DNA of 41,159 nt, taken from IMG/VR virus record IMGVR_UViG_3300030333_004009, positions 1-41,159 of that record, one strand, 5' to 3'. Positions 14,666 to 37,492 of the stretch are shown piece by piece; within the stretch, counting starts at the first letter, position 1, and every line of letters begins with the position of its first letter. A model generated the notes under the pieces. It worked only from the letters and a program-made list of their open reading frames with translations, searched no databases and was not told where the DNA came from. Both the position numbers and the translations under genes were made by a program. The DNA is from a virus. Lineage: Duplodnaviria > Caudoviricetes.

Positions 14666-14667
14666 TA

Positions 14668-17474: not shown

Positions 17475-17946
17475 AAAAGAACTACTAGACGACTACTATG
17501 ATATTATTCTTTATCTGTCGGCTAAGTTTAATAATTTAGTACCCACAATCCCTCTAGAGGATTTAATGCAGGTTTCATTTCTTGGTGCAATAAACGCCAT
17601 CAGAAACTATAACCCTGAAATCGGGCCACTTAGGAACTATGTGTTTTCAAGCTCCAAGAACTACATCTTAAGGTTTTTGTCTAAAGAAAAGTTCTGGGCA
17701 GAAAAGGTAAAGCTTGGGCTAGCTGACTTTGCGGAAGTTCAAGAGGACAAAGAATATGCCTTGATGGTAAGAGATATTATAGATAAAGCATCAAACAAAC
17801 TTTTACCTATTGAACATAAGCTACTTCTTTATAAATCTCTAGGCTCTACACGAAAAGACATATGCGACTCTCTGCATCTTACAAAGAGAGAGTACTACGA
17901 CTTATTTTATTCTGCGATAGGAAAAGTTCAACTCAATGAGACGTAA
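17461..17946 (+). CDS. Sigma-70-like factor (regions 2 and 4 only)
   Basis: EDLMQVSFLGAINAIRNYNPEIG (region 2) and LLPIEHKLL...GSTRKDICDSLHLT (region 4 HTH); about 161 aa. Confidence 0.75.
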   Translation: MVKTEKELLDDYYDIILYLSAKFNNLVPTIPLEDLMQVSFLGAINAIRNYNPEIGPLRNYVFSSSKNYILRFLSKEKFWAEKVKLGLADFAEVQEDKEYALMVRDIIDKASNKLLPIEHKLLLYKSLGSTRKDICDSLHLTKREYYDLFYSAIGKVQLNET

Positions 17947-19576
17947 AAAAATACTATTTTGCACTGAAGCATCACACCTACCTACAGGATATTCAGTTTA
18001 CACAAAAGAGGTACTTTCTAGATTGCATCAAGATCCAGCATTTGAAGTTGCGGAGCTTGCGTGTTACTGCGATCAGGCATCAATAGACCCAAATACTCCT
18101 TGGAAAATATATGCAAATCAGCCAGTCAAGGGATCTGCAGAGTGGGATGACTATAAGTCATATCCCAGCTATCAGTTTGGAGAATATACATTTAATCAAG
18201 TACTACTAGATTTCCTGCCAGACTTTGTTATGGATATCAGAGATTGGTGGATGGTAGAATTCCAGCAGAGGTCTACCTTTAGAAACCATTTTCATTGGGC
18301 TCTGATGCCTACGGTGGATGCCTATCCTCAAAACAAGCAGTGGATAGAAACCTTCTCTACTGCGGATTCCGTATTCGCATACTCCGAGTTTGGAAAAAGG
18401 ACACTAACTAACCAGTGTGATTCTCTAAACTTTATCGACATAGCCTCTCCTTGTGCAAGTGGCAGCTTTTCCCCAGTAGCTAACAAGAAGGCGCACAGGG
18501 AAAGTATGGGTATTGGCGGGGAGCCGTTCATTATAGGAACCGTGATGCGCAACCAAAGGAGAAAACTTTACCCAGATCTATTTAAAGTCTTCAGGGAGTT
18601 TTTGGACGCCACCAAAGATCCGCAATGTTTTTTATATTGTCATACATATTATCCAGATGTTGGATGGGAGATACCAGACCTACTACAGGAATACGGACTA
18701 ACCAACAGGGTTCTTTTTACTTACAGATGTAAAAAATGTGGAGACGTATCACCAACGTTTTTCAGCGACTCTATACAGGCATGTAAGGCCTGCAATAACT
18801 TCTCCAAAGAGCTAGTAGGTGTAAATAACAAAATAGAAGAAAAAGATTTGGCGAGAGTTTATAATCTGTTCGATGTCTACATTCAGTATGCAAATAGTGA
18901 AGGCTTCGGTATGCCTCAATTAGAGGCCGTCCAGTCTGGACTTCCTCTCTTAGCGATAGATTATTCTGCTATGGAATCCGTAGTAAAAAATGTAGGGGCT
19001 ATCCCGCTAAAACCATTAGCTTTAACTAGAGAATGTGAGACTGGTTGCCATAGAGCTATCCCCAACAATGATGCCACCTTGGTCAAGCTTATTGAGCTTT
19101 ACAGTAAAGATAGAGAGAGTCTAAGAAAGATGGGGACGCAGATGCGAGAGAACTGTCTCAATCACTACAGCTGGGATAAAACTGCAAAAATATGGTCTGA
19201 TTTCTTTCATAGTACTCCAGTCAGAGACATATCTGAAACTTGGTTGTCACCACCAAAAATTGTAGAACCTGCAGCCAGTGTCCCTGAAGGACTAACTCCA
19301 AATGACCAAGCCAACTTCTTATTTGAACACGTTCTACACACGCCTGAAGCGATAGGCAACTACCAGTGGAAGAGGCTTGTCAAAGACTTGACTTACAAGT
19401 GCTCGGCTAGTAGTACTATTCCGGGATACTATTTTAATGAATCTCATATTGATAACAATGTCCAGACATGGGCTAGATTCACTGTAAAAGAAGCGTATGA
19501 ATCGCTTGTCCAAATGAGAAATCTACATAATAGATGGGAAACCATAAGGGCGCAACAATTAAACTTGAGGTCTTAA
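17936..19576 (+). CDS. GT-B glycosyltransferase (GT4-like) with zinc-ribbon insertion
   Basis: PTGYS N-terminal loop, RNQRRK, EGFGMPQLEA; internal CKKC...CKAC. Confidence 0.88.
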   Translation: MRRKKILFCTEASHLPTGYSVYTKEVLSRLHQDPAFEVAELACYCDQASIDPNTPWKIYANQPVKGSAEWDDYKSYPSYQFGEYTFNQVLLDFLPDFVMDIRDWWMVEFQQRSTFRNHFHWALMPTVDAYPQNKQWIETFSTADSVFAYSEFGKRTLTNQCDSLNFIDIASPCASGSFSPVANKKAHRESMGIGGEPFIIGTVMRNQRRKLYPDLFKVFREFLDATKDPQCFLYCHTYYPDVGWEIPDLLQEYGLTNRVLFTYRCKKCGDVSPTFFSDSIQACKACNNFSKELVGVNNKIEEKDLARVYNLFDVYIQYANSEGFGMPQLEAVQSGLPLLAIDYSAMESVVKNVGAIPLKPLALTRECETGCHRAIPNNDATLVKLIELYSKDRESLRKMGTQMRENCLNHYSWDKTAKIWSDFFHSTPVRDISETWLSPPKIVEPAASVPEGLTPNDQANFLFEHVLHTPEAIGNYQWKRLVKDLTYKCSASSTIPGYYFNESHIDNNVQTWARFTVKEAYESLVQMRNLHNRWETIRAQQLNLRS

Positions 19577-19580
19577 TAAA

Positions 19581-20687
19581 ATGAAAGTTGTATATATAGG
19601 AAACTACAAAGACGGAACCGGATGGGCTAATGCTTGTATAAACAATATATTAGCGCTAGACTCTGCCGGAGTAGATGTTGTCCCGAGAGCTATCAATTTT
19701 AATGGAGCCAATGCAGAAGTTCCGGAGAGGATATTAGAACTTGAGTCTAATACATCTTTAGGATCAGATATCTGCATTCAGCATACTCTTCCGCATCTAT
19801 ATGTTTACGACAGAAGATTCAAGAATATAGGGTTCTATGTCACCGAGACACATTCCTTCTCCGATTCGATGTGGCAGAAAAGCATAAACCTTATGGATGA
19901 GGCTTGGGTTCCTAACAAACAAATGGTAAAAGCATCTCAAAGAAGCGGCGTCAAAGTTCCCATCAGGATTGCTCCTCATTCTTTAGATATGTCTAAATAT
20001 GACAATGTTGAGTCCACAGCTAGCGCCCCAGAATTAGAGGGCACCTTCAATTTCTGTTTTGTCGGAGAAATGAGCAAGAGAAAGAACATAGAAGCCTTAC
20101 TAAGAGCTTTTCATACTGAATTTCATCCCTCTGAACCTGTGAATATATTATTTAAAGTTCACAAATCAGGCTACGACAGTGACCAAAGCCTATCTTTATT
20201 TAGAGAACTCTCCAGCCATGTAAAGAGATCTTTGAAGACAGGAAAGAAATATAAAGAGGAAGTTGTGATAGCCGGTTATTTGGAGCACCAACATCTACAC
20301 TCCTTAATGAAACAGGCCCACTGCTTTGTAATGCCCAGCTTTGGGGAAGCGTGGTGCATACCGGCTATGGAAGCTATGGCTTTGGGTATGCCGGTTATTT
20401 ACACTCAAGGAACAGGAATGGATGACTTTTGCGTAGGTTTTCCCGTCGAATCTACACTACAGCCTTGCTATGAAGCAACGGACACCCTAGATAGTTTGTA
20501 TACGGCAGATTCAAAATGGATGGAACCGGACGTGTCTGACCTCGCAGCTAAGATGAGGATTGCGTATCAGCAGTATAGCACAGACAAAAAAGCTTACGAT
20601 AACTTATGTCAAAACGCTAAACATGGCGCATCGTCGTATGATACAGCTACTATTGGGCGTCAATTAAAGGAGCTATTAGATGGTTAG
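19581..20687 (+). CDS. GT-B glycosyltransferase (GT4-like)
   Basis: GTGWA, RKNIEALLRAF, PSFGEAWCIPAMEAMALGMPVI. Confidence 0.9.
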   Translation: MKVVYIGNYKDGTGWANACINNILALDSAGVDVVPRAINFNGANAEVPERILELESNTSLGSDICIQHTLPHLYVYDRRFKNIGFYVTETHSFSDSMWQKSINLMDEAWVPNKQMVKASQRSGVKVPIRIAPHSLDMSKYDNVESTASAPELEGTFNFCFVGEMSKRKNIEALLRAFHTEFHPSEPVNILFKVHKSGYDSDQSLSLFRELSSHVKRSLKTGKKYKEEVVIAGYLEHQHLHSLMKQAHCFVMPSFGEAWCIPAMEAMALGMPVIYTQGTGMDDFCVGFPVESTLQPCYEATDTLDSLYTADSKWMEPDVSDLAAKMRIAYQQYSTDKKAYDNLCQNAKHGASSYDTATIGRQLKELLDG

Positions 20688-21693
20688 TAATGCAACACAA
20701 GAGTCAGTCAGATCAATATTGAGAAGATGTTTTGCCCCAGAAAGTAAGCTTAACATCCTGACATTTTGCACTCATGAAAGGTACGAACAGAACTTATGCA
20801 TGACAGGACATGAGTTCTATTCTATTAAGCATGGAAAAACTTGGAATAGAGATTACGGAATAGTCCCAAAGAATTATCACGAGATAGTAGAAGTTCCTAC
20901 CCATATCAACTTTGATCTGATACTGTCACATACGAGCTGTGAAAGAATAGCCATAGCGAAGGAACTACAATCAATCTATAATATACCAATTATACGGCAC
21001 ACCCATGTACTTCCTGATATCAGGTTTGATGTTTCCAATCAGGTTCAAAGTTTTAACGCTATACCAGTGGATCATGATAGTTTTATATCTAGATACAATA
21101 TGGGAGCTTGGGGCAAACACGAATCTGCAAACTGCACATTCGTTGAACATGGTATAGACACGGAATTTTGGGATAAAGGCATTGAGAAAGATAGAGATAA
21201 TGTTTGCCTTTCCGTAGTCAATGATTGGCCTAACAGAGACTGGTGTTGCGGTTGGAATCTGTGGAATGAGATAGTGAGTGGGGGAGATTCTCAACTTCCT
21301 GTTAAAGTTCTTGGAGACAGTCCCGGCTTTTCAAAACCTGCCGAGACGACGGAAGCGCTTCGTGATGCTTACAAAAGTTCTTCCATATTTCTGAACACTT
21401 CTATACATTCTCCAGTTCCTACAGTCCTCATGGAAGCTATGGCTTGTGGATGTGCTATAGTTAGCACTAACAACTGCATGATACCAGAAATCATAACGCA
21501 TGGAGAAAATGGTCTTCTAGCTAATTCAGCCGACGAACTGAGGGAACATTGTTTGTATCTCCTTCATAATCCCGACGAAGCTAGAAAACTTGGCGAAAAT
21601 GCAAAAGCCACAATACAAGATACCTTCAGCTTAAAAAGATTCACTAATAGTTGGAATGAATTATTCACAACAGTAATACAAAATTATAGGTAG
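20680..21693 (+). CDS. GT-B glycosyltransferase (GT4-like)
   Basis: HGIDTEFW, SPVPTVLMEAMACGCAIVST, ITHGENGLL. Confidence 0.9.
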   Translation: MVSNATQESVRSILRRCFAPESKLNILTFCTHERYEQNLCMTGHEFYSIKHGKTWNRDYGIVPKNYHEIVEVPTHINFDLILSHTSCERIAIAKELQSIYNIPIIRHTHVLPDIRFDVSNQVQSFNAIPVDHDSFISRYNMGAWGKHESANCTFVEHGIDTEFWDKGIEKDRDNVCLSVVNDWPNRDWCCGWNLWNEIVSGGDSQLPVKVLGDSPGFSKPAETTEALRDAYKSSSIFLNTSIHSPVPTVLMEAMACGCAIVSTNNCMIPEIITHGENGLLANSADELREHCLYLLHNPDEARKLGENAKATIQDTFSLKRFTNSWNELFTTVIQNYR

Positions 21694-21697
21694 AAAA

Positions 21698-22132
21698 ATG
21701 AAAATATTATTATCACATATAAAACCAGAAGATTCCGGGGCTCATACTTGGATACAAGACATAAATAATATAGACATGTTTGTTGAAAATTCTGAGGCTA
21801 CGGAAATTATAGTTGACAATTTTTTAACTGCCTACAACTATAGTAGTATAGGTTCTTTAGTAGCTAAGATAGCGTCAAAACTCAGGCTGAATGGCAAGAT
21901 CATTGTATATCAACAGGATATTGACTTTGTTTGCCACCAATACAATAAGACTGGTATTGACATACAAGACCTGAACGACTTATTATTTAATGGGGGTATA
22001 CCAATGTATTCCGCTTTGAACGCAGAAGTAGTGTCAGATCTCCTGAAGTCAACAGGTCTAACAGTAGAGCAGAAGCAAATTAACACCCAGAACATGCAAA
22101 GCATTATAGTAGCGAGGAGAGATCATGTATAA
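21698..22132 (+). CDS. Hypothetical protein, degenerate SAM-methyltransferase-like
   Basis: EATEIIV...KLRLNGKIIVY...LLKSTGL resembles class I MTase motifs, but no Gly-rich motif I is visible. Confidence 0.5.
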   Translation: MKILLSHIKPEDSGAHTWIQDINNIDMFVENSEATEIIVDNFLTAYNYSSIGSLVAKIASKLRLNGKIIVYQQDIDFVCHQYNKTGIDIQDLNDLLFNGGIPMYSALNAEVVSDLLKSTGLTVEQKQINTQNMQSIIVARRDHV

Positions 22133-22946
22133 AGTCAAAACAAACTGTGAGGGATGCCTCTTTGCCGAGTACGATAAAAAAGGCAAGGAGCAGGTAGCCT
22201 GCAAGCTGGGTAGAATTCCCACCTTTAATCCCACTTTTACAAAAGAAAAGAAAGACAAAGATTCTAAAAAATGTTTTGTTTTTGATAGATTTTGTAACAC
22301 TTACAGACCGGATGAATGGCTCAACCATTTAACAGAAGAAGAGAAAAAAGATCTAAAGGCAACCGCTATGAACGAAGTTTGCCCACGAATGGGGTTCTTC
22401 ATCTTTCTTAGAGATTCTAGCGAGAATGCAATCTCAGATATGAAAAAACGTTTAGGTGAGCTAAAGACACAAACTATGGGCTCTCCGAGATACATATGTA
22501 TTATTAATCCTAAAGTAGAATACAATGAAGAGCTTCAAGAGTTATTAGCCTCTAACTTTGATTTTGAGGAGACTGAGTATCATATTGTGCTAAGCTTAGT
22601 AGAGTCTGGAGACCTCTCTTTGATTGATGAAGCGTTCAAGCATGGCAAGAATGGCTGGGTTTATGTCGGCTCATCCAATGAAGAAATAAGAACAGACATT
22701 ATCGAGAAGGTCCATAATCGCATCAATATTGAGCTGCGTAGACTTGTAGTTATTGAACCGTATGACAAAAACAATAATGGCTTTATATTCCAAACTGCCA
22801 TATATAAACTTTTAGGAGGAAACAGTGTATTCACTGTAGAGGGAGAAGACCAAGAAGTAACCTTCAGGGAAAAGTTGAGCGAGATGGAGATTGTAGATCC
22901 AGACCTCGTTTCGTCTTGGGAGGACTTCATAAATGGAACTCCCTAA
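22125..22946 (+). CDS. Hypothetical protein with Cys-rich N-terminus
   Basis: CEGC...C...C...C in the first ~60 aa; remainder alpha/beta, possibly degenerate GT-A (weak). Confidence 0.7.
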   Translation: MYKVKTNCEGCLFAEYDKKGKEQVACKLGRIPTFNPTFTKEKKDKDSKKCFVFDRFCNTYRPDEWLNHLTEEEKKDLKATAMNEVCPRMGFFIFLRDSSENAISDMKKRLGELKTQTMGSPRYICIINPKVEYNEELQELLASNFDFEETEYHIVLSLVESGDLSLIDEAFKHGKNGWVYVGSSNEEIRTDIIEKVHNRINIELRRLVVIEPYDKNNNGFIFQTAIYKLLGGNSVFTVEGEDQEVTFREKLSEMEIVDPDLVSSWEDFINGTP

Positions 22947-23757
22947 AGTAGCAATAATAATCAGCAACTACAACTATGGAAAATATGTAGTAGAAGCGAT
23001 AAAAAGCGCTTTAAATCAGGACTATGAGGGTGACATCCGTGTTGTGGTTGTAGATGATGGATCTTCAGACGGGTCTTGGGAGATGCTTAATGAGCACTTT
23101 GAAGACGACTGGACTTCTGGTACAGATGAACATCAGGTATCTACTCCATACTATAGTGGGCCGATGAAATTTTTTGTATGTGACGATCTTGACCTCTGGG
23201 TATTTAACATTAGGAACTCTGGAGCTAGCACTGCTAGGAATGTCGCCATTTGGGAAGCGTGGCAATGGGCAGACTACTTTGCTATTTTAGATGCCGACGA
23301 CATGTACGATCCGTCAAAAGTAAAAAAACATGTAGACAAGATGATGGAGCACGACGAATTAGGGGTGACTTATTCCGACTACGTAATTCATAGAACTGTC
23401 AACGGCTCGAATTATAACAAGTATGAGTATAAGTATCCCTACTCAAGGGATGAGCTACGCAGGCAATGTATAGTGCATAGCGCTGGAGTTATAAAGAAAG
23501 GCTTTCTAGAATCAGTAGTCAACCTAGAAAATAAAGAATTTTATAATAGCGCTCTACATGGACCCGGAAGTCAAGAATTTATAGGATGTACTGAGGACTA
23601 TGATTTATGGTTGAGGCTATCCGACGTATGCATGATGTCTCACATCCCTGAACCCTTATCAATAGTTAGAGAAACAGGGCAAAACCAGTCAATGAAGATG
23701 ACTCCGGAAATATTCCAGAATAATGCTGCAATAATTTCTGGAGGACAAAATGCCTAG
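22933..23757 (+). CDS. GT2 family glycosyltransferase
   Basis: IIISNYNYGKYV, VVVDDGSSDGS, ARN, LDADD, EDYDLWLRL. Confidence 0.93.
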   Translation: MELPKVAIIISNYNYGKYVVEAIKSALNQDYEGDIRVVVVDDGSSDGSWEMLNEHFEDDWTSGTDEHQVSTPYYSGPMKFFVCDDLDLWVFNIRNSGASTARNVAIWEAWQWADYFAILDADDMYDPSKVKKHVDKMMEHDELGVTYSDYVIHRTVNGSNYNKYEYKYPYSRDELRRQCIVHSAGVIKKGFLESVVNLENKEFYNSALHGPGSQEFIGCTEDYDLWLRLSDVCMMSHIPEPLSIVRETGQNQSMKMTPEIFQNNAAIISGGQNA

Positions 23758-24466
23758 ATATACTAGAGTAATCAAAAAAGAGGCTCATTCTACAACTGTT
23801 GGAATACTCTCTGCTGGTATAGGAAATAAAATTAAATCCTATGAGCCCAGAAGTCTAATAAAGGTTGGTTCCGACAGTCTACTATCTTATCAGGTTAACC
23901 TCATTAACAATCTATTCACCGCTCCGGAAATAATTGTAGGCGTAGGTGTAGGCGCTAATAAAATCATGAAAAAAGGATACCCCAAAGATAGCGTTAGATT
24001 GGTAGAAAACCAAAACTATTCTAGCACGGGATCATTTGAAACACTCAGACTAGTCGTTAATAATTGCACAACTGATACACTACTAATAATGCATGGAGAT
24101 TTATATTTCAATGCAGCGACTTTGGATAGTTTGGACTACTCCAAATCATTTGTCATAGTTGACAGTAGTGGAATGCTGAGCAAGAAAGAAGTAGGTGTAA
24201 CATCCGTGAGAGACAAAGCCACTATATTATCTCATGGACTGCCGATGAAATGGGGACAAATAGCATATTTCTGCGGAAAAGAATTTCAGCTACTAAAAAA
24301 CGTATGCAACAAGGCTTCTGAAGATACGAAGAAATTTTTGAGTTTTGAAGCTCTCAATATGGTGATAAATAAAGGGGGCAATCTTTACACTGTAGAGCCC
24401 AAAGGTATGTCAATATTAGAAATAGATTGTATGAAGGATTTAAAGAATGAAGATTTTAATATCTAG
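23750..24466 (+). CDS. Nucleotidyltransferase (NTP_transferase, LicC-like)
   Basis: ILSAGIGNKIKSYEPRSLIKV, VENQNY, MHGDLYF, EIDCMKDL. Confidence 0.8.
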   Translation: MPRYTRVIKKEAHSTTVGILSAGIGNKIKSYEPRSLIKVGSDSLLSYQVNLINNLFTAPEIIVGVGVGANKIMKKGYPKDSVRLVENQNYSSTGSFETLRLVVNNCTTDTLLIMHGDLYFNAATLDSLDYSKSFVIVDSSGMLSKKEVGVTSVRDKATILSHGLPMKWGQIAYFCGKEFQLLKNVCNKASEDTKKFLSFEALNMVINKGGNLYTVEPKGMSILEIDCMKDLKNEDFNI

Positions 24467-25499
24467 CGACGGTCGCCACGCTCATTACTACCAAAGGACG
24501 GCATTAGCTAGAGCGTTTAGAGCTGCGGGGCATGAGGCATCCTTATGGGATTGTCATACTATGAGTGCCTTTGATGCTTTTGATACATTTGAACCTGATA
24601 TTTTTTTGGGACAAGCGTATAATCTAACTAACTCGCTTATGAAGTGTATATACGAAAGACCTCACCTGAAGATCGGATTAAGGTCAGGAGACTGGGGAGA
24701 TATTACTCCAGACCCAAGACTTAATGTGTTATACGCTACCGAGGAGCAGATTAGACTGCTAGAAAAGCTGAAGAATGAAACTGGCCAGCCAGACTTTGTT
24801 CACATACATTACGATCAAGCGGCTATGGATATAACTCACTCCAAGTACAAAGACATTGGTGTAGATGCTAAGTCTTTGATTATGTGTGCTGATGTCGAAG
24901 AGTATATAGACTCAGAACATAAGGACAACCTTGCCTGTGATATTGGTTTTGTGGGAGGGTATTGGCCATATAAAGGTCTAATTATAGATGCCTATTTAAC
25001 GCCACTCTGTGACCCAGTGGGTAACTACAATATTAAAATATTCGGTAATCAGCCTTGGACTAATGTGAATCAGTACTGCGGCGTGATAGGAGACTCCGAT
25101 GTTAAAAACCTCTTCGCCTCTGCTAAAATATGTCCAAATCTAAGCGAGCCGCATGCCCATGAATACGGCTTTGATATCAATGAAAGATGTTTTAAAATAT
25201 TGTGTGCGGGAGGCTTCTGCATATCCGATAATATAACATCTATAAGAAATATATTTCATGGCAACGGTGTAGTTTTTGCAGACTCTCCGTCTGACTTCAA
25301 AGATAAGGTCAACCATTACTTAGAAAATAAGGAAGAAAGAGATGAGATTAGCAGGACGGGAAAACAGTTTGTTCTTAATAACCACACTAACTTCCATAGA
25401 GCCGCCGAAGTATTTAGATACTTTGGGTTTAAACAAGAGGCAGACAAAATGATAACCGGATGGGGTCATGCTAAGGAGCAATTCAATGTACAAAGATAA
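24447..25499 (+). CDS. CgeB-like GT-B glycosyltransferase
   Basis: CDIGFVGG, SAKICPN, NERCFKILCAGGFCISD, VLNNHTNFHRA. Confidence 0.82.
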   Translation: MKILISSDGRHAHYYQRTALARAFRAAGHEASLWDCHTMSAFDAFDTFEPDIFLGQAYNLTNSLMKCIYERPHLKIGLRSGDWGDITPDPRLNVLYATEEQIRLLEKLKNETGQPDFVHIHYDQAAMDITHSKYKDIGVDAKSLIMCADVEEYIDSEHKDNLACDIGFVGGYWPYKGLIIDAYLTPLCDPVGNYNIKIFGNQPWTNVNQYCGVIGDSDVKNLFASAKICPNLSEPHAHEYGFDINERCFKILCAGGFCISDNITSIRNIFHGNGVVFADSPSDFKDKVNHYLENKEERDEISRTGKQFVLNNHTNFHRAAEVFRYFGFKQEADKMITGWGHAKEQFNVQR

Positions 25500-26442
25500 A
25501 AAAATTCTAATAACAGGCGGAACAGGGTTCTTAGGAAAGGCTGTTGTAGATACACTGCGATCACAAGGCTATACTAACTTGTTGCCAATAGGTAGCTCTG
25601 TTGATCTCACATGTTCGCAAGAAACTTTTGATTTCTTCAAACACAAGAAGCCTGATGCGGTCATCCATCTAGCCGCCACTGTTGGAGGGATTGGAGCGAA
25701 CAAAGACAATCCCGGATTATTTATATATAATAACTTAGTCATGGGCACCAACACCATCGAAGCATCTAGAATCAATAAGATTGAGAAATTCGTAATGGTC
25801 GGTACTGTTTGCGCGTATCCTAAGTTTACGCCTGTCCCGTTTAAAGAGGAGGATATGTGGAATGGATATCCAGAAGAAACAAATGCACCATACGGAATTG
25901 CGAAGAAGGCACTTATGCAGCTTGTGCAATCATATCATGAGCAGTACGACTTTAACGGTGTTAATCTCATTCCTGTTAATATGTACGGGTCTCATGACAA
26001 CTTTGATCCTGCCATAAGTCATGTAATTCCAGCACTGATACTAAGATTTCACAAAGCTATGAAGTTTGATTTAGAGTCAGTAGAAGTTTGGGGGACTGGC
26101 AATGCTAGTAGAGAATTCTTACATGTTAACGATTGTGCTAATGCTATAGCACTTTCTCTCGAAAAAGATGTTTCTCCAGAGCCAATAAATATAGGCACTG
26201 GCGGTGAGATACAAATAAAATATCTTGCCCATACTATCGCAGAAATAATGGGCTATAAAGGAGCTATATACTTTAACTCTGATTATCCAGATGGTCAGCC
26301 TAGAAGACAGCTAGATATCACCAGAGCCAAAGAACGACTGGGTTATGAGCCAAAAATTGACTTGCTAGAAGGACTGGAAAGCACTATAGATTGGTTTAAT
26401 GACAACACAGAGGAGTTCGATGTTTACCTCAATCGTATTTAG
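25486..26442 (+). CDS. fcl: GDP-L-fucose synthase family epimerase/reductase (Fcl/ColC-like)
   Basis: TGGTGFLG, HLAATVGGIGAN, CAYPK, YGIAKK, NMYGSHDNFD, SHVIPALI, WGTGNASREFLHV, PDGQPRR. Confidence 0.93.
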   Translation: MYKDKKILITGGTGFLGKAVVDTLRSQGYTNLLPIGSSVDLTCSQETFDFFKHKKPDAVIHLAATVGGIGANKDNPGLFIYNNLVMGTNTIEASRINKIEKFVMVGTVCAYPKFTPVPFKEEDMWNGYPEETNAPYGIAKKALMQLVQSYHEQYDFNGVNLIPVNMYGSHDNFDPAISHVIPALILRFHKAMKFDLESVEVWGTGNASREFLHVNDCANAIALSLEKDVSPEPINIGTGGEIQIKYLAHTIAEIMGYKGAIYFNSDYPDGQPRRQLDITRAKERLGYEPKIDLLEGLESTIDWFNDNTEEFDVYLNRI

Positions 26443-27343
26443 TAAAGACAGACCTCTGCAACTTGATCTATGTTTACAAAGTATAAAAAAGAACTTTTTT
26501 GCTGACAGTCGGATTTTAGTTTTATATACTACATCTAAGGGTTACGATAAAAGTTATGAGCAATTAATCACTGAACATCCTTCGGTTATGTTTCTTAAAC
26601 AGAGCCATAATATATTTGATGACATACAGAGCATCGTAAGTTCCAAATATTTTGATGGCATGTCTGAAACCTATCGTGCGGTATACTCTGATCCATTTAA
26701 ATATGTGACTTTTTTCACAGACGATGATATTATCTACAAAGATCTTGGGATCACAGAGGAAGATGTAAGCTTGGCATTTGAAAACGACGCATGCTGTATT
26801 TCCCTAAGACTTGGCGCGAACACGACAATGAGGGATTATGGCGACGGCGTCCTCAGAAGAGATGCCGTTCCGTCGGAGGTGATGAGATTGGGTAATCTAC
26901 TTGCTTGGAATAGAACTTCAATCCCTATTGGCGGATATTGGGCTTACCCACTCTCTGTAGATGGCCACATATTTAAGGTTAGTCATATTAAAAAATTCCT
27001 CGATGAGCTATGCGTGCTTAATACCCATTACTCTAACTTGGGAATGCCTAGAGCAAAGCATGCTTGGAGTCAAACCCCGAATGAATTTGAATCAAAACTT
27101 CAGAGGTTTTTCTTCGACCTGCCGCCACTGATGACCTGTACTGAGTATAGTGCTGTAGTTAATTCGCCAAACAACAGAGTGCAAAACACTGCAGCGAATA
27201 GAAGTGGAGATGTATATAATTATACAGCTCTAGATCTGAAGGACGAATTTGACGAAGGACGAAGAATCAAACTAGATGATGTCACTATAGAAAATATAGT
27301 ATGTCCCCACCAAGAAATAAATATATTAGAGGGTTTATCATGA
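26420..27343 (+). CDS. GT-A (GT2-like) glycosyltransferase
   Basis: IVFSKDRPLQLDLCLQS, FFTDDD DxD motif, YPLSVDGHIF. Confidence 0.65.
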   Translation: MFTSIVFSKDRPLQLDLCLQSIKKNFFADSRILVLYTTSKGYDKSYEQLITEHPSVMFLKQSHNIFDDIQSIVSSKYFDGMSETYRAVYSDPFKYVTFFTDDDIIYKDLGITEEDVSLAFENDACCISLRLGANTTMRDYGDGVLRRDAVPSEVMRLGNLLAWNRTSIPIGGYWAYPLSVDGHIFKVSHIKKFLDELCVLNTHYSNLGMPRAKHAWSQTPNEFESKLQRFFFDLPPLMTCTEYSAVVNSPNNRVQNTAANRSGDVYNYTALDLKDEFDEGRRIKLDDVTIENIVCPHQEINILEGLS

Positions 27344-27981
27344 TATTCAACTTACAGCAAATAACAGAACACTTAAAAATCCAGATAGGCGGAGCCCTTC
27401 ATGTCGGGGCTTTTGTGGGCGAGGAGCTAGAAGCCTATAGATCCATGGGCCTAACAAACACAATAATGTTTGAACCTCAAAAAGATCTATACGAAATAGT
27501 GAAGGCTAAGTGTATAGGAGATGAAAGAGTTTTCAATGTTGCGCTAGGAAGCTATCAGCACACAGCGGAAATGTTCATCTCTCATACAGAGGGCGGGATT
27601 GCTAACGGCTCCGGTGCTTCCAGCTCTCTCTACAAACCCAAAAAGCATTTGACAGAACATCCACATGTGAAATTTAATTCTAAGCAGGAGGTAAAAGTTG
27701 AGTGTTTAGACAGCTTTTTAGAAGATAATAGTATTGACACTTCTGGTTACAACTTTTTGAACATTGATGTTCAAGGTTACGAACTAGAGGTTCTTACTGG
27801 AGGATTAAAATTCCTGTCTCAAGTTGATCTAGCTGTTATCGAGGTTAACAGAGATGAAGTCTATGAGCACTGCCCAATGGTAGGAGATATAGATGAGGTT
27901 ATGAACAAGTTTGGGCTTGGTAGAGCTCACACATTTTGGCAATCAGAAAGCTGGGGCGATGCCCTGTATGTGAGGTTATAA
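27340..27981 (+). CDS. FkbM-family SAM methyltransferase
   Basis: LHVGAFVGEE, FEPQ, NVALG, NFLNIDVQGYELEVL, WGDALY. Confidence 0.9.
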   Translation: MIFNLQQITEHLKIQIGGALHVGAFVGEELEAYRSMGLTNTIMFEPQKDLYEIVKAKCIGDERVFNVALGSYQHTAEMFISHTEGGIANGSGASSSLYKPKKHLTEHPHVKFNSKQEVKVECLDSFLEDNSIDTSGYNFLNIDVQGYELEVLTGGLKFLSQVDLAVIEVNRDEVYEHCPMVGDIDEVMNKFGLGRAHTFWQSESWGDALYVRL

Positions 27982-27982
27982 T

Positions 27983-28789
27983 ATGAGTTTCTTTGAAATG
28001 TGTCAGATAGAAACATCTTTATTTGACATTGAATTTGCTAGACAAGATCCGCATTGGGATATGGTCAAGAATGCTTATGAAAACAATTTGGCTAGAAATG
28101 ACGAGGATTGCGCCATACCTAAAATAATCCATTTCATATGGCTTGGGTGCAAGCTCCCCGAGAAATATGAAAGTATCCTTCAGGGCTGGAAAGACAATAA
28201 TCCTGAGTTTGAAATTTGGCTCTGGGATGACGAGAAGGTTGAGACCTTCCTTCCTCAAATGATAAACAAAGAGCTTTACGGGAAGACTGATAGCTTTGGA
28301 CATAAGTCTGACATGCTGCGCTACGAAATACTTAAGAGGTATGGAGGTCTTTATGTAGATGTGGACTTCTTATGTAATGGCAACTTTTCCCATGCTCATG
28401 ACAAGTATTGTTTCTATGCTGGCATATGCCTAGAAAGACCCGTGCAGCTTAATAACGGAATTATGGCATCAATGCCTAACCACCCTATATTAGATATATG
28501 TATAGACCAAATGCGTCTAGATAACCCTTGGAATATAGCATGTCCACACACGTTAGTATTATTTCAAACAGGGCCTTGGGCTTTGACTAGAAGTGTGCTT
28601 CATTACTTGGAAACCGTTGGTGATGAAGGAGTCATGATATATCCATCTACGACATTCCATCCTTTCCCAGCAGCTCTAAGGCATGATCCTACCGATGAGC
28701 TAATTAAATCTTTCTATAAGCCTTGGACAATGGCCTGCCACTTATGGCATTCAAGTTGGTCAGAGAAATCGGAGCACTACAATGGATGA
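27983..28789 (+). CDS. GT32 (OCH1-like, DxD) glycosyltransferase
   Basis: IPKIIHFIWLG, SDMLRYEILKRYGGLYVDVD, TGP, HLWHSSW. Confidence 0.9.
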   Translation: MSFFEMCQIETSLFDIEFARQDPHWDMVKNAYENNLARNDEDCAIPKIIHFIWLGCKLPEKYESILQGWKDNNPEFEIWLWDDEKVETFLPQMINKELYGKTDSFGHKSDMLRYEILKRYGGLYVDVDFLCNGNFSHAHDKYCFYAGICLERPVQLNNGIMASMPNHPILDICIDQMRLDNPWNIACPHTLVLFQTGPWALTRSVLHYLETVGDEGVMIYPSTTFHPFPAALRHDPTDELIKSFYKPWTMACHLWHSSWSEKSEHYNG

Positions 28790-29615
28790 TTTTGCGATCA
28801 AAACTAACCATGAAAACCCTCCTCATAACTATGAAATTTTTGAAGAGTACTTCTACAAAAGGTTTCGTAGGGAGTCTCCATCGACTCAGAGAGAGTATTT
28901 GCCAGTATGCTGGACGAATTATTACGTGTCGAAAAATTACTGCAATGATGACATGTCTGACCTGCAGCAGTATCTTGACTCTCTGGATAGAGGTAAGGAT
29001 TACTTTACTATATGTCAATGGGATGATGGTATAGTCAGCAATATTGAAGGTTTAAATTTGGAGGTGTACTCATCTGGCGGTGTCGGAGACTATGCCTATC
29101 CGCTTAACTGCATGCCTCATAATACGCAAGACTCAAAAGATCGAACTATATTAGCAAGCTTTGTTGGGGCTATATATGGAAGACATAGCGTTAGAGAAGC
29201 AATGGCTTCTGAACTAGGAGATAAACAGGATATATTTATTAGCGAGAGTATCACCTTTGAAAGGTTTCAAGAGGTGCTAGTCAATTCTATCTTTGCGTTG
29301 TGTCCTAGAGGTTATGGGAAAACCTCCTTCAGAATATGCGAAGCCTTAGAAGCAAGAGTGATACCTGTTTATATTTATGATGAACCTTGGATTCCATTTG
29401 AAGATAAATTGAGCTTTGAGGAATATGGCGTTCTTTGCCATGTAAACGAATTGCCCCTCCTACATAAAAGGCTTATCAAAATGACCGAAGATATAAACAC
29501 TATACAAGACTTAATAACTAGAGGTGGCGAAGTATACAAAAGCTACTATTCATTTGATGGATGTTACAGTAACATCATTGCCAGAGAGATGGGGAAGCCC
29601 AATGAAAACAACTAA
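28782..29615 (+). CDS. Exostosin-like (GT47) glycosyltransferase
   Basis: LASFVG, SIFALCPRGYGKTSFRICEALEARVIPVYIYDEPWIPF. Confidence 0.85.
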   Translation: MDDFAIKTNHENPPHNYEIFEEYFYKRFRRESPSTQREYLPVCWTNYYVSKNYCNDDMSDLQQYLDSLDRGKDYFTICQWDDGIVSNIEGLNLEVYSSGGVGDYAYPLNCMPHNTQDSKDRTILASFVGAIYGRHSVREAMASELGDKQDIFISESITFERFQEVLVNSIFALCPRGYGKTSFRICEALEARVIPVYIYDEPWIPFEDKLSFEEYGVLCHVNELPLLHKRLIKMTEDINTIQDLITRGGEVYKSYYSFDGCYSNIIAREMGKPNENN

Positions 29616-30528
29616 AATTAACTTTGAAAAGATGTATGGCGGTTTCTTAAAAGAAGACAACCTGATTACAAACACGCTGAGATTAAGATATAACGTAGTT
29701 ATCGACGAAAGCAACCCAGATGTAATATTCTGTCAGGACTTTCCCGGAGATCCCGCTGCGCCTGTAACAGCTAGTAGGCTTGGGCGAAGTAAAATCGTAC
29801 ATTGGTTTATAGAATCTTTAGATAAAACCGGGATGCCAAACTATGACCAGTGCAACTTTTCTATAAGCTCGTGTAAATTTGATCATCCGCAAAACATAAG
29901 GATACCACTTTGGGCACTTTACATTGACTGGTTTGGTAGACCGTATAACCCAAACAGAAACCAAGCTTTCTTGGTGTGTCCTGAAAAACTACTACAACCA
30001 AAGACATATCAACCTAAAGATAAGTTCTGTTCGATTTTGACAAACAACGGGCAAGGGTTAAGAGGAAGTGTATACCCATACTTTATACAGTACTTCATAG
30101 ACAGAGGGCTTCTAGTTGAGAGCAGAGGCAACTACCTAAGAAACATGGAGTCGATACAAGAGGGTCCGGGCGGAGACGAGAAGGTAAAGTTAGAATACAT
30201 TAAAAACTTCAAGTTTCACCTATGCTTTGACAATAGTGAATTTGATGGATGGATTACAGAAAAACTTATTCATCCTCTCTATGAAGGTGTCATCCCTATA
30301 TATTGGGGATGTCCAGATGTTATAGAAGAATTTAACAAGGACGCTTTTATTCATGTAAGAGATTTTGAAAATTCTGAGGAGGTGTGCGATAAGGTGCTGG
30401 AGATATATCACAACCCAGACATGTTTAAGGATATACAGGCTCAGCCTACTTTCCCCGGCAATAAAATTCCAGAACACGCTAAACCGGAAGCCATACTAGA
30501 AGATTTAACAAGGATTATTGAATCGTAA
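29602..30528 (+). CDS. GT10 alpha-1,3/4-fucosyltransferase-like protein
   Basis: FKFHLCFDNSEFDGWITEKLIHPLYEGVIPIYWG matches the alpha-1,3-FucT motif; RIPLW; FIHVRDF. Confidence 0.88.
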   Translation: MKTTKINFEKMYGGFLKEDNLITNTLRLRYNVVIDESNPDVIFCQDFPGDPAAPVTASRLGRSKIVHWFIESLDKTGMPNYDQCNFSISSCKFDHPQNIRIPLWALYIDWFGRPYNPNRNQAFLVCPEKLLQPKTYQPKDKFCSILTNNGQGLRGSVYPYFIQYFIDRGLLVESRGNYLRNMESIQEGPGGDEKVKLEYIKNFKFHLCFDNSEFDGWITEKLIHPLYEGVIPIYWGCPDVIEEFNKDAFIHVRDFENSEEVCDKVLEIYHNPDMFKDIQAQPTFPGNKIPEHAKPEAILEDLTRIIES

Positions 30529-31691
30529 TGACAGCACCAATTAAGTTATGCTCCGATATCATTGGAAAGCAAGATATAGACCTGCTGATCGAATGGCTCA
30601 AAGATGTACCTAGACTCACCAAAGGGGAGAAGACACTTGAGTTTGAAGATGGGTTCTCTAAGAAAGTTGGCTCCAAGCACTCTATATACTGTAACTCTGG
30701 CTCTTCGGCTAATCTCTTGATTGTCTCGGCTCTACAACAAATGGGACTTTTGCATAATAACAAAGTCGTAGTGCCGCAGGTATCTTGGTCTACGACAGTT
30801 TTCCCAGTGATCCAGTTTGGTTTAACACCAGTTCTATGTGATTGTAATTTAGATAACTTAGGTATTGATATCACGCATCTAGAACAAATAATATGTGACG
30901 AAAAACCGGCAGCCATTATCTTAGTTCATGTACTCGGCTTTGACTCACACATAGAAAAGATTATTGAACTGTGTGAAGCAAATAACGTAATTGTCATTGA
31001 AGACACTTGTGAGAGTTTAGGATCAAAGACATCTGAAAAGATGCTTGGCACATTCGGGCTCGCCAGCTCGTTCTCTTTTTACTTTGGTCATCACATCTCC
31101 ACAATAGAAGGAGGGATGGTCTGCACAGATAATGACGACTTTGCGGACATGGTGCGAATGATTAGAAGTCATGGATGGGATAGAGATCTAAGCGACGAGA
31201 AGAAACAGGAGTATAGAAGCGCGTGTAAAGCTACAGACTTTGACTCTCTTTACAAGTTTTATTATGCTGGATTTAACTTAAGATCCACTGACTTACAGGC
31301 TTTTCTTGGTATCAATCAACTAGATAAGATAGAATTTATAACAGAACAGCGACAAAGAAATTACTTTACGTATAGAAACAATTTAAGAGACGACCTATGG
31401 AAGCCTATGCTGGAAAAAAATCAGGACACCGTATCGAATATGGGTTATCCGATTATCGTTGAAAACAAAAATGAAATATACAATGCTCTCTCGAAAGAAG
31501 AAATAGAATGTAGACCGCTTGTTGCCGGAAGCATGGGAATGCAACCAGCTTGGGTTAACTTGTATGGAGAGAGCGCTATGACAAATGCTACCGTAATTGA
31601 CAAAAAAGGAATGTATCTTCCTAATCATCAAGATCTCACCGAACAGAATATTATTGATATATGTTCTATTATTAATAAGGAGGCCCAGTAA
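30528..31691 (+). CDS. DegT/DnrJ-fold PLP enzyme, ColD-like GDP-4-keto-6-deoxymannose 3-dehydratase
   Basis: NSGSSANLL, EDTCESLG, SFYFGHHISTIEGGM (His where aminotransferases have the Schiff-base Lys), RSHGWDRDL, GFNLR; 387 aa. Confidence 0.85.
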   Translation: MTAPIKLCSDIIGKQDIDLLIEWLKDVPRLTKGEKTLEFEDGFSKKVGSKHSIYCNSGSSANLLIVSALQQMGLLHNNKVVVPQVSWSTTVFPVIQFGLTPVLCDCNLDNLGIDITHLEQIICDEKPAAIILVHVLGFDSHIEKIIELCEANNVIVIEDTCESLGSKTSEKMLGTFGLASSFSFYFGHHISTIEGGMVCTDNDDFADMVRMIRSHGWDRDLSDEKKQEYRSACKATDFDSLYKFYYAGFNLRSTDLQAFLGINQLDKIEFITEQRQRNYFTYRNNLRDDLWKPMLEKNQDTVSNMGYPIIVENKNEIYNALSKEEIECRPLVAGSMGMQPAWVNLYGESAMTNATVIDKKGMYLPNHQDLTEQNIIDICSIINKEAQ

Positions 31692-32554
31692 TGTCGGAGA
31701 TAATCAACTTAGCAAAAGGCAATGGCGATGACCATGTGTATGAAGAGGCAATCAAAATAGCCTCCAAAAAGCTCAAGAATGACTATAGTTTTATTATACA
31801 AGTATGGGATCATGAGCTGCCGAAAGAAACCAAGTACCCAAAGGTTTTTATCTCAACTTCAGATGAGTCACATAAAGTCCCTAAGCAAATCCACGATGAG
31901 GATTTTGTGCATATATTTAAACAATATATACCGCTTTCAAGATGGAGTCAGGGAGATCAAGATGCCACATCTGTAGAATTCTCACTTTTGGGTGATGTAA
32001 TACGAAAGAAGGTCACAGCGCTACCTTTATGCCACCTTAAGGGCGTAGAAGATCAAGGCCTATCTATAAAAGAAAGAAAGTACGATTGGTCTTGGATGGG
32101 CCAGTTTAATCCATATACTAGACTATATTTTAGAGGTCAAATTGAGAAGTTACTTAGCGAACGCCCCGACTGTGAGAGCAAAGTGTTGTGGTACGACGGA
32201 TGGAACAATGGAGAGGATGCAGAATCATATTCAGATGTTATAAATAATACTAAGATAGTTCCAGTGCCTATTGGCTCTGGGAGTTATGAAAGCTTTAGGT
32301 TTTTTGAAGCTATGATGTGTGGGTGCGTAGTGTTAAACACAGCGTTGCCAACCACGGACTTCTATAACAACGCGCGACATGTAAGACTTAAGAATTGGGA
32401 TCAGCTTATTCGTGCAGTTGACATACTGATGGAAGATCCTGACCGCATGCAGGTATTATCGGATAGGGCTCGAAAGTGGTATAAGGATTTCTGTTCGCCA
32501 GAAGCAATATCAAATCTGATCATTTCCAAACTGGAGGGTGTCATTGAAAACTAA
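31691..32554 (+). CDS. GT-B glycosyltransferase, exostosin/GT47-like C-terminal domain
   Basis: ERKYDWSWMGQ, TKIVPVPIGSGSYESFRFFEAMMCGCVV. Confidence 0.72.
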   Translation: MSEIINLAKGNGDDHVYEEAIKIASKKLKNDYSFIIQVWDHELPKETKYPKVFISTSDESHKVPKQIHDEDFVHIFKQYIPLSRWSQGDQDATSVEFSLLGDVIRKKVTALPLCHLKGVEDQGLSIKERKYDWSWMGQFNPYTRLYFRGQIEKLLSERPDCESKVLWYDGWNNGEDAESYSDVINNTKIVPVPIGSGSYESFRFFEAMMCGCVVLNTALPTTDFYNNARHVRLKNWDQLIRAVDILMEDPDRMQVLSDRARKWYKDFCSPEAISNLIISKLEGVIEN

Positions 32555-33260
32555 ATTCTATGTCATGCATTACAAGCAGGCGCCAGAGAGAAGAAATATA
32601 CTGCAGCCCAAGCTAGAAGAGCTAGGAATAGACGCAGAGTGGTATACGGACTACGACCAAGAAGACCTTACCGAAGAGTTGATAGACGAACTATATTCTG
32701 AAGATTTGGAGTTATTCAAACACAGAATGGACGGATGGAAAACTGATGAAGATTATAGGAACTACAAAGGGATAACAAGATCTCATTTGTCTTTGGTGAT
32801 AAAGTTTATTAAATGTATTGAGACTATAGCAGAATCTGACTATGATAACGTGGTCTTTTTTGAAGACGACGTTGTATTTGATGACGGTAGGTATGGTTTC
32901 ATACAAGGAAACAAGGACTTAATATTTGAATATATCAATATGGCGGAAGAAATCGGTTGGGATGTTTTGTTTTTTGGTGGAGCTTTTGATCACGGACTTA
33001 TAAATAATAAAATAAAAGGGCAGTATAAAAACTTGTTAGAGGTAGATCACCCGTCAACTAACACAACCTCCTCATTCGCCATGACTAAAGAGGCGTGTGT
33101 AAAAATACTAGACACACTATACCCGGTATGCAACTCGGTTGACTGGGAGTTCAACTATCATTTTGCCGCCAATAATTTCAGAGTGTTTCATACCTTCCCT
33201 TATATCTGCGGGCAGGCATCTACTTCTGGCAGATGTGAAAGCACACTGACTCTAAAATAA
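32538..33260 (+). CDS. GT25-like glycosyltransferase
   Basis: YVMHYKQAPERR, LSL, VVFFEDDV, WDVLFFG, VDW; GTG start with GGAG upstream. Confidence 0.8.
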   Translation: MSLKTKFYVMHYKQAPERRNILQPKLEELGIDAEWYTDYDQEDLTEELIDELYSEDLELFKHRMDGWKTDEDYRNYKGITRSHLSLVIKFIKCIETIAESDYDNVVFFEDDVVFDDGRYGFIQGNKDLIFEYINMAEEIGWDVLFFGGAFDHGLINNKIKGQYKNLLEVDHPSTNTTSSFAMTKEACVKILDTLYPVCNSVDWEFNYHFAANNFRVFHTFPYICGQASTSGRCESTLTLK

Positions 33261-33279
33261 TAATCTAAGGAATTTGAAC

Positions 33280-34041
33280 ATGAAGAAAGTACTTTTTACA
33301 ATAGCTAGATACGAGGATGAACGACAGGCATTCTTTGAAAAATATACTAGACCTAAGAATAAACGATACTGTCAAAAGAACGGCTTTGAATATATAGAAT
33401 ATAATGATGATGGGCATAAGCATAGAGATTCCCTCACCAGATCTTGGGATAAGTTTGGCAAAGTGCGAGAGCTAATGGAAGATGGACATCTAAAGCCCGG
33501 TGACATAGTGACAAATGTAGACGCAGATATGTGTTTGGTGGATGAAAACTGCCCACTAATCACAAACAAGACTTTTTCCTACGCAATAGATTCCTGTAAC
33601 ACTCACTGCATGGGGGCATATTCTTTGAAAATTAATGAGTGGGGAATGAATTTAGTTAGGCTTATTTTAGACGAAGATAGATATAATAAATATAAAGACC
33701 ATAAAACTATTGGTTCTATGGGGGAGATGAGTTCCTTTTGGGAGATCTTTGGTGAACAAGCTTCTTGGTACAGTCTAGCTGGAATTAAACGTCATAGCTG
33801 GACACCGTTTCTCTTGATGCCCCACTATGGGTGGCACTCGGAAACCAATGAAGATACAGCTTATTCCCTAGAAGAGCTATACGCCAATGTTGAAGTCTTA
33901 GACCCGAATTGGAATGTCACTCACATACCCGAAGAAGACGGCAATGACCAATTCTATATGCTTCCCACTCGCAGAGAAGATGTTATCATCAGGCATTTTG
34001 CGGGAGGAAGAAAGTGGAGAAGAGAGTATTTCGAGGAGTAA
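33280..34041 (+). CDS. GT34-like (galactosyl/xylosyltransferase-type) GT-A protein
   Basis: NKRYCQKNGFEY, WDK, VDADM DxD, EQASW, WN, RHFAG. Confidence 0.65.
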   Translation: MKKVLFTIARYEDERQAFFEKYTRPKNKRYCQKNGFEYIEYNDDGHKHRDSLTRSWDKFGKVRELMEDGHLKPGDIVTNVDADMCLVDENCPLITNKTFSYAIDSCNTHCMGAYSLKINEWGMNLVRLILDEDRYNKYKDHKTIGSMGEMSSFWEIFGEQASWYSLAGIKRHSWTPFLLMPHYGWHSETNEDTAYSLEELYANVEVLDPNWNVTHIPEEDGNDQFYMLPTRREDVIIRHFAGGRKWRREYFEE

Positions 34042-34044
34042 ACA

Positions 34045-34512
34045 ATGAAGAATATAGCAGCTTTAGTCGATAGCTTATCACCAACACAAATGTCCTTTTA
34101 TTTGATAAAAGAATTCAATAATTTTGTAAAAAATGTTGATTATTCCCCGTGTTGTTTCTATAATAATTTAATGGCAACCGTTTTACCGCCATTTTTTAGC
34201 TGTATGAACATATCTTTTTTTTCAAACTTTAAGGGTGACGCTATAGCTACTAGCATAGAAACAGCCAACCTTCTGTTGAAAACAAACAATTCATGCAATA
34301 GATATCTTTACTTGTGGGACATGGAGTGGTTAAGAAACCCTCTAGCGTTTGAAACCATGAGTGAGATAATGAATGATGAAAGGATAAAGCTCATAGCTAG
34401 AAGCGACTCGCATAAGGATTTAATCGAAAACTTCTGCAATAGAGAGGTCATCGGAATTGTGGATGACTGGAATGTAGACCAACTTCAGGAGCTTCTATAT
34501 GGACACGAATAA
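34045..34512 (+). CDS. Hypothetical protein (possibly an isolated GT-B-like Rossmann domain)
   Basis: 155-aa alpha/beta ORF, IATS...YLYLWDMEW...LIARS; ends the glycan locus. Confidence 0.65.
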   Translation: MKNIAALVDSLSPTQMSFYLIKEFNNFVKNVDYSPCCFYNNLMATVLPPFFSCMNISFFSNFKGDAIATSIETANLLLKTNNSCNRYLYLWDMEWLRNPLAFETMSEIMNDERIKLIARSDSHKDLIENFCNREVIGIVDDWNVDQLQELLYGHE

Positions 34513-37416: not shown

Positions 37417-37492
37417 TTTATGATCTCCTTTATGTATCTAGGCACCTGCATAATAACATACACAAAACGGAGCGTAATGTGTTCTTTTTTAT

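Follow-up and report, generated by a model that had tools for sequence, protein, structure and literature searches.

A kernel-and-cassette glycosyltransferase island in a clade of uncultured marine tailed phages, with a predicted fucose or colitose cap and phage structural proteins as putative acceptors

The IMG/VR virus record IMGVR_UViG_3300030333_004009 (Duplodnaviria; Caudoviricetes), analysed over its whole length of 41,159 nucleotides and hereafter referred to as the window, derives from an uncultured marine tailed phage and carries genes for RecA, DnaB, DnaG, a split DnaE, a single-stranded DNA-binding protein (SSB) and PhoH. Its main feature is an island of 19 open reading frames (ORFs; G1 to G19), all on the + strand and arranged back to back from 17936 to 34512, with gaps of at most 13 nt between neighbours and overlaps at 13 of the 18 junctions, as the preliminary description of this DNA had proposed. 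The GC content of the island (0.396) is that of the replication genes (0.395). To its left lies a sigma-70-like gene with region 2 (17368..17946, +; PF04542, 5.5e-8), the true start of which is probably downstream of the TTG, and to its right a fixed nuclease-like gene of HNH/DUF559 type (34499..35266, +), for which the earlier label NUMOD3 was not recovered. Since contigs from four runs of four studies cover all 30 bins of the region, with one contig of 14.3 kb bridging positions 21337-35665, the island is not an assembly chimera. Its genes are under purifying selection, with dN/dS values of 0.02-0.08 in the 16 genes that gave an estimate against the related loci L005 or L288, and saturation in G1, G16 and G19. 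At the G13/G14 junction (29398-29601), the contig of one run (X7) has a diverged segment of 202 nt and unchanged length, possibly a recombination patch.

A search with G1 retrieved 76 viral loci, in which G1 lies downstream of dnaE/ssb wherever that flank is present. Gene counts refer to the 36 loci that extend 9.9 kb downstream or as far as the nuclease on the right flank, the 40 shorter ones being set aside. Four genes occur in all 36 and constitute, together with the terminal G19, the kernel of the locus: G1 (17936..19576), a glycosyltransferase (GT) of family GT4 and fold GT-B with PF00534, a Cys-rich insertion and a C-terminal extension; G5 (22125..22946), a protein with invariant N-terminal cysteines (C8, C11, C26, C57); G7 (23750..24466), which is sugar-nucleotidyltransferase-like, its GlmU-like NCBIfam match (5e-8) being far under the cut-off; and G8 (24447..25499), a GT-B enzyme (PF13524, 8e-24). 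G19 (34045..34512) ends 15/15 loci with a right flank and 6/6 short loci. Nearly as widespread are the GT4 enzymes G2 (19581..20687; PF00534, 7.5e-16; 33/36) and G3 (20680..21693; PF00534, 4.5e-19; 31/36), the 144-aa protein G4 (21698..22132; 33/36), the GT2 enzyme G6 (22933..23757; PF00535, 3e-21; 30/36), the GDP-fucose synthase G9 of Fcl/ColC type (25468..26442; NF047922, 7e-92; SDR match in 30/36) and G10 (26399..27343; 30/36), a probable GT-A enzyme with invariant D108 and D109 and a start that is likely 21 nt later. The variable part comprises the FkbM methyltransferase G11 (27301..27981; PF05050, TIGR01444), the GT32 enzyme G12 with a DxD motif (27983..28789; PF04488, 4e-12) and the GT47 enzyme G13 (28782..29615; PF03016, 5e-17), found in 13, 9 and 5 of the 36 loci respectively, counts that are limited by the 10-kb flank. 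It continues with the GT10 enzyme G14, a predicted colitosyl or fucosyl transferase (29524..30528; PF00852, 8e-15; FucT, 2e-18), the ColD-type pyridoxal phosphate (PLP) 3-dehydratase G15 (30528..31691), the GT-B enzyme G16 (31691..32554; PF13524), the GT25 enzyme G17 (32538..33260; PF01755, 1.6e-5, above cut-off) and the DxD protein G18 (33274..34041), in which D83 and D85 are conserved in four sequences.

Of the about 12 GTs counted in the preliminary description, ten have a Pfam GT match above cut-off (G1, G2, G3, G6, G8, G12, G13, G14, G16 and G17). G6 stands as one of two supposed GT2-like enzymes, and G10 as a lead only (atlas 0.94, PF00535 on 35% of the cluster members); likewise, G13 holds its GT47 assignment, but that of G16 is weak (E 1.3e-3, below cut-off). 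The GT34-like label of G18 is unsupported: the protein has its DxD motif and no match in Pfam, PHROGs, NCBIfam or the PDB sequences. The sugar-nucleotide and methylation enzymes were recovered (Fcl-like G9, ColD-like G15, FkbM G11 and, weakly, GlmU-like G7). G4, G5, G18 and G19 have no match in the Pfam, PHROGs and NCBIfam libraries. None of 79 G5 homologs is informatively named, and a profile comparison with G10 found no relation (probability 2.9); G5 is possibly a degenerate GT-A. All 30 atlas matches of G19 lack a common family, the top three being viral and the nearest named one (Gtf3_N, 0.87) a lead only; its profile has no PDB match and no relation to G1 (0.07), and G19 is possibly a stand-alone N-terminal half of a GT-B enzyme. 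In one sequence (P0069), the C-terminal 63% of G5 (99% identity) is fused to a bacterial N-terminus resembling a membrane nucleotide-sugar dehydratase, probably through chimeric assembly.

Relatives confirmed that the locus belongs to a phage, although not as one fixed 19-gene unit, since it ranges from 7 to more than 20 genes. Clade genomes measure 145-155 kb, and no close isolate was found among 50,697 phage records (best DnaB match ca. 26-29%). Three relatives are near-complete (94-100%): G001 (145 kb, 94% complete), which is collinear with the window and encodes terminase, portal, cement, major head and tape-measure genes, and G006 and G007 (154-155 kb, 99-100% complete). The shortest loci have seven genes (L071, L072, L074) and that of G007 eight, while the island of G001 has about 21, including a sulfotransferase, methyltransferases and a second Gmd-like gene. 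In the window and most relatives, the variable cassette lies inside kernel brackets (G8/G10 to G19). With respect to L288, G14, G15, G17 and G18 are 90-94% identical, far closer than G6-G8 and G10 (53-71%), from which we conclude that the cassette was exchanged. Within it, the GT10 and ColD genes travel as a pair: among the best 18 ColD loci, a G14-type GT10 (53-93%) lies directly upstream in 16, one being cut by the contig end and one lacking it, whereas a distant GT10 (34-35%), seen in four loci, has no adjoining ColD. Six of those 16 loci have the pair at a second position, following phoH. Other large phages commonly carry ColD-type genes too (586 stretches), frequently accompanied by gmd and an Fcl-like gene, and in many unrelated large phage contigs of up to 321 kb (L306-L367) such genes adjoin gmd, an Fcl-like gene and often phoH. 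Further sugar clusters occur in G001 (118.6-126.7 kb), G007 (72-80 and 98-102 kb) and G006 (37-41 kb), with GT4, radical SAM, sulfotransferase, PAP2, GT7 and C-methyltransferase genes.

The preliminary description saw no obvious multi-pass membrane protein in the island, and a simple hydropathy scan, rather than a dedicated predictor, indicated the same: the highest 19-residue mean over all 19 proteins is 1.39, so that no membrane helix is predicted. The reported absence of a priming transferase, flippase or polymerase extends to the three near-complete relatives. The priming transferase family PF02397 (Bac_transf) was found in 0/5 records and 0/3 near-complete relatives (controls 9/14), WecA-type polytopic enzymes being judged by hydropathy scan alone. 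No ORF of at least 90 aa in G006 and G007 has two or more helices, and the maximum in G001 is three, in a 157-aa ORF. A Pfam scan, applied to 85 proteins from G001 and 109 unassigned ones from G006 and G007 and covering small ORFs in part, detected no flippase, polymerase, ligase or integrase family. These results answer the refuting condition of a cellular contig with export genes elsewhere, the three near-complete relatives being phages in which no such machinery was found. None of the features marking an O-antigen or capsule locus (priming transferase, multi-pass exporter, cellular chromosome) was found, nor the multi-pass proteins and tyrosine integrase of Gtr-type seroconversion; soluble GTs and nucleotide-sugar enzymes, one of the marks of virus-encoded virion glycosylation, are both present. 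Most O-antigen and lipopolysaccharide (LPS)-core GTs, however, have no membrane helix. Because soluble GTs can work on host carriers, absent export genes do not prove carrier independence, and the earlier statement that the pathway is lipid-carrier-independent is not borne out.

The deoxysugar cap foreseen by the preliminary description can be given predicted names, fucose and colitose, from the Fcl-like G9, the ColD-like G15 and the GT10 pairing. G9 matches PDB 1bsv (2e-69) with the Cys, Tyr-Lys and His positions retained in the alignment. G15 had been taken for an aminotransferase, a label rejected here since a His aligned to His188 of ColD (PDB 2gms) replaces the catalytic Lys of DegT aminotransferases. 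ColD is also its best PDB match (1.4e-60, versus 4e-39 for E1 and 3e-35 for perosamine synthase), and the HH motif is found in all 80 best loci; the sequence also has no Cys cluster of the Fe-S type, but its best NCBIfam model, below cut-off, is RfbH of the E1 group rather than ColD. Colitose is predicted because match and motif make G15 a probable ColD-type 3-dehydratase, and the context with Gmd and Fcl supports GDP-4-keto-6-deoxymannose as its likely substrate. Gmd, needed for both fucose and colitose synthesis, is missing from the window. G001 has genes for the upstream GDP-mannose steps, a eukaryote-type phosphomannomutase and a mannose-6-phosphate isomerase-like cupin (L099 10299-11687).

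In relatives, gmd occupies the packaging block. Among the 80 best terminase-region loci, it lies just 5' of the terminase gene in 40/40 of those with at least 2.6 kb upstream; the other 40, being shorter, were set aside, and gmd is still visible in 14 of them. The block reads sigma-y289-gmd-HNH-like-ERCC4-(Clp)-terL and includes gmd even in G007, although an Fcl gene is missing from the G007 island. Among NCBIfam families, Gmd is the one that the gmd products match best, with scores of 380-409 bits that fall slightly short of the cut-off of 415. A motif with the consensus TTTTGTGTATAAT, trained on portal upstream regions, is found ahead of the portal gene (38/39 held-out loci), the next head gene and the gene that ends the structural block (12/12). 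Of 29 distinct loci, 18 also have it at 10 bits or more ahead of the sigma-y289-gmd-terL block (background 0/79), and in 26/29 the best match lies 686-830 nt before the sigma stop. The best match in the window, a putative virion-gene promoter motif of 15.5 bits (37452..37468, -), heads a gene of 310 aa (36484-37416, -), the last of the structural block. Its Gly/Ser/Thr-rich product has no family match and is a candidate for both an abundant virion component and an acceptor of the glycan. In G007, genes for collagen-repeat and laminin-G proteins follow the capsid gene as an insertion (L286 8761-18999, L287, L279), and collagen fibres are possible acceptors as well. Upstream of the second sugar clusters, the motif reaches 13.7 bits in G001 and stays below 10 in the others. 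Late transcription of the island itself was considered and rejected, the motif being missing ahead of G1-G10. The transferases would thus seem to be produced alongside the replisome, and the donor enzyme alongside the particle, two timings that we infer from sequence.

Additional indications come from the relatives of single enzymes. The structure model of G1 (pLDDT 91) has as its top PDB fold match B736L of chlorovirus NY-2A (E 1.9e-20, TMt 0.83, 16% identity; next match 6e-15). The best homolog in a cultured phage, gp14 of S-CBS4 (22%), is accompanied by a galactosyltransferase and a methyltransferase and lies between portal and head protease. Cultured homologs of G2 come from Streptomyces phages and, in the single record inspected, lie upstream of the ribonucleotide reductase, endolysin and portal genes.

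Regarding the host, the 80 best genome matches of the DUF1501 protein of the window are mostly labelled Planctomycetota, chiefly Pirellulaceae (64-77%). The second-best match (L192) has phage neighbours, and the best one (L191; 95%, on a 2.7-kb contig) is probably phage as well. Other envelope-type genes are DUF1559 in G007 and Planc_extracel in G006. Judging from these borrowed genes rather than from spacers, the phage probably infects planctomycetes of the family Pirellulaceae. The DUF1501 gene (260-1474) encodes an N-terminal twin-arginine-like sequence, with Pirellulaceae as nearest cellular relatives, and G001 has four paralogs (L097 10049-19551). L192 is a contig of 152,655 bp in a metagenome-assembled genome labelled SAR202 (G010), apparently a whole clade phage binned into a bacterial genome; G010 carries two G1 genes, on two contigs. 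Elsewhere in the window, the two genes of the split DnaE enclose a DEDDh exonuclease gene and a 72-aa ORF (13094-17112), an arrangement kept in most loci, and a conserved protein (35266-36033; 57-84% in 15 loci) has no library match and looks Rad52-like by eye only. The window has no tRNA genes.

Building on the enzyme families, the division into kernel and cassette, the absence of a Bac_transf gene and of flippase-sized membrane genes from near-complete relatives and the place of Gmd in the packaging block, all of which the genomes themselves document, we lean towards a soluble enzyme set, composed of kernel and cassette, that puts a methylated glycan capped with fucose or colitose on phage structural proteins, a reading that we consider just on the probable side. 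The island would be read through from the replication operon, so that its enzymes are in place before assembly, and Gmd, switched on with the terminase and virion genes, would supply GDP-4-keto-6-deoxymannose. From this, G9 would make GDP-fucose, and G15 with G9 GDP-colitose. The kernel (G1, G5, G7, G8 and G19) would recognize the acceptor and add the first sugars, G2, G3, G6 and G10 would lengthen the chain, and the cassette (GT32, GT47, GT10, GT25 and FkbM, with sulfotransferases in relatives) would cap it, resulting in strain-specific coats. The glycan would be built in the cytoplasm of the infected cell. Such a coat may, as a guess, alter adsorption or resistance to proteases or grazers.

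Several observations weigh against virion proteins as the target. The island sits in the replication operon, and the virion-gene motif was found ahead of G1 in 0/50 loci and never ahead of G2-G10, ssb or dnaB; that this motif is a late promoter is itself something we infer. Both gmd and the terminase are known from relatives, the window having neither, and many loci are near-duplicates, so that the counts given above overstate independence. B736L is a GDP-mannose-binding GT-B enzyme whose acceptor may not be a capsid protein (PMC9614988), the other cultured G1 homolog (S-EIVl) adjoins a primase, and no mycobacteriophage GT matched G1, G2, G6 or G18. Moreover, the clade carries host-envelope-type genes (DUF1501, DUF1559, Planc_extracel), and the GT10, GT25, GT32 and ColD families are O-antigen-like. 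Some of these points favour the alternative that the enzymes remodel the host envelope, working at the inner membrane face on host lipid-linked glycans or surface proteins with the help of host flippase, ligase or secretion. Island enzymes could act in this way on host undecaprenyl-linked or periplasm-bound glycans via host export, and soluble GTs are usual in O-antigen synthesis, so that missing export genes are compatible with it. A replication transcript devoid of the virion-gene motif, planctomycete envelope-type genes and enzyme families typical of O-antigen and lipooligosaccharide loci would all fit, and O-chain modification was proposed for the GT islands of pelagimyophages (PMC7029224). 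This explanation nevertheless conflicts with a Gmd tied to the packaging block, with the G1 fold match and the viral or mostly viral top atlas clusters of G19 and G10, and with the lack of Gtr-type membrane parts. Stable seroconversion is unlikely in view of the missing tyrosine integrase (0/3 near-complete relatives; serine integrases were not searched by family) and of the absence of G1 from the 301 genomes of the likely host family that were searched, a search backed by a positive control. Overall, we regard host-envelope remodelling as unlikely yet deserving serious attention; its benefit would be superinfection exclusion, or protection from grazers over a prolonged infection.

Roles might also be split, with the kernel glycosylating phage proteins and the cassette serving the host surface, a free oligosaccharide or a small molecule. 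The second site of the GT10 and ColD pair after phoH and the separate sugar clusters of relatives are in line with this, but the position of the cassette within kernel brackets, with no intergenic room for a promoter of its own, makes it improbable. As to DNA, the other acceptor named in the preliminary description, the fixed position of the locus directly after the polymerase and SSB genes and the fact that phage DNA GTs add di- or trisaccharides and resemble LPS enzymes (bioRxiv 10.1101/2023.12.21.572611) would speak for hypermodification. Known DNA glyco-modification relies on a pyrimidine hydroxylated via a thymidylate-synthase homolog, or via a methyltransferase and a dioxygenase (PMC13326640; 10.1101/2023.12.21.572611). 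The products are hmC, hmU or hoC, and the second route pairs a C5 methyltransferase with 5mYOX. No thymidylate-synthase homolog or C5 methyltransferase was found in the three near-complete relatives, with working controls, while a TET/JBP dioxygenase search was blank, as were its controls. Six-base palindromes are strongly avoided in four clade sequences (mean observed/expected ratio 0.52-0.61, versus 0.85 in 50 kb of T4, the one modified-DNA control, and 0.96 in the host pool); the window lacks six of them altogether, T4 lacks none, and G006 has neither GCGC nor CGCG. DNA exposed to restriction would be expected to look like this, and the avoidance argues against global protection. With no thymidylate-synthase homolog or C5 methyltransferase found and palindromes avoided, DNA as the acceptor is very improbable.

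Comparison with known systems places the preferred reading, glycosylation of phage structural proteins, in context. The E. coli O55 GDP-colitose pathway (Gmd, ColD/WbdK, ColC; PDB 2gms, 3b8x) similarly combines a His-type PLP dehydratase, an Fcl-like reductase and Gmd, whereas here the partner transferase is a GT10 enzyme and the colitose genes are distributed over the island and the packaging block. The known colitosyltransferase belongs to GT11. Among aquatic phages, the cyanomyophage P-SSM2 reportedly carries an LPS-like island. Pelagimyophages (PMC7029224) are lytic phages that, like this clade, have hypervariable islands of GT and sugar-nucleotide genes; they and the cyanomyophages are T4-like myoviruses with islands beside the tail fibres, for which the available part of that source describes no invariant kernel, in contrast to the DnaE polymerase, long tape-measure gene, fixed kernel and packaging-block Gmd of the clade studied here. 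Mycobacteriophages (Che8, Corndog, Myrna) glycosylate capsid and tail tube with their own GTs (PMC12363180, PMC12619734, PMC11256854), encoded in phage Maravista close to the genome's 3' end (PMC11256854). They have few GTs, whereas this clade has 7 to more than 20 genes and its own GDP-deoxysugar supply, and none of the four GT genes compared (G1, G2, G6 and G18) has a sequence match there. Moraphages are a separate lineage (PMC12619734). Chloroviruses (PBCV-1, NY-2A) and Megavirinae likewise encode GTs, nucleotide-sugar enzymes and methyl or sulfate decoration, in clade-specific clusters of 6-33 genes (PMC9614988), and G1 folds most like B736L of NY-2A. These are eukaryotic giant viruses with measured glycans, while the present island belongs to a bacterial tailed phage and its glycan is a predicted one; colitose is not mentioned in the review cited. 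A literature search yielded no paper on the locus of this clade, supplements and subscription papers lying outside its scope, so that a description there is possible.

A more far-reaching scenario, possible rather than probable, is that a widespread clade of planctomycete phages evolved a giant-virus-like glycosylation machine independently of mycobacteriophages, with a five-protein kernel (including two non-enzyme-like subunits) priming virion proteins in the cytoplasm, a late-wired donor, and swappable cassettes including the first GT10 colitosyltransferase, giving rise to phage serotypes that are selected in seawater without antibodies. The seven-gene minimal loci are small enough to clone as a test system, and glyco-engineering would gain new soluble enzymes in the kernel and GT10 proteins. 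If the host surface is the target, this would be the most elaborate envelope remodelling by a lytic phage known to us, in a phylum from which no isolate of the clade emerged. Should the target be the virion, elaborate glycan coats would count among the core traits of a whole clade of marine and freshwater tailed phages, beyond mycobacteriophages and giant viruses, and what selects variable coats where there is no immune system would become the question.

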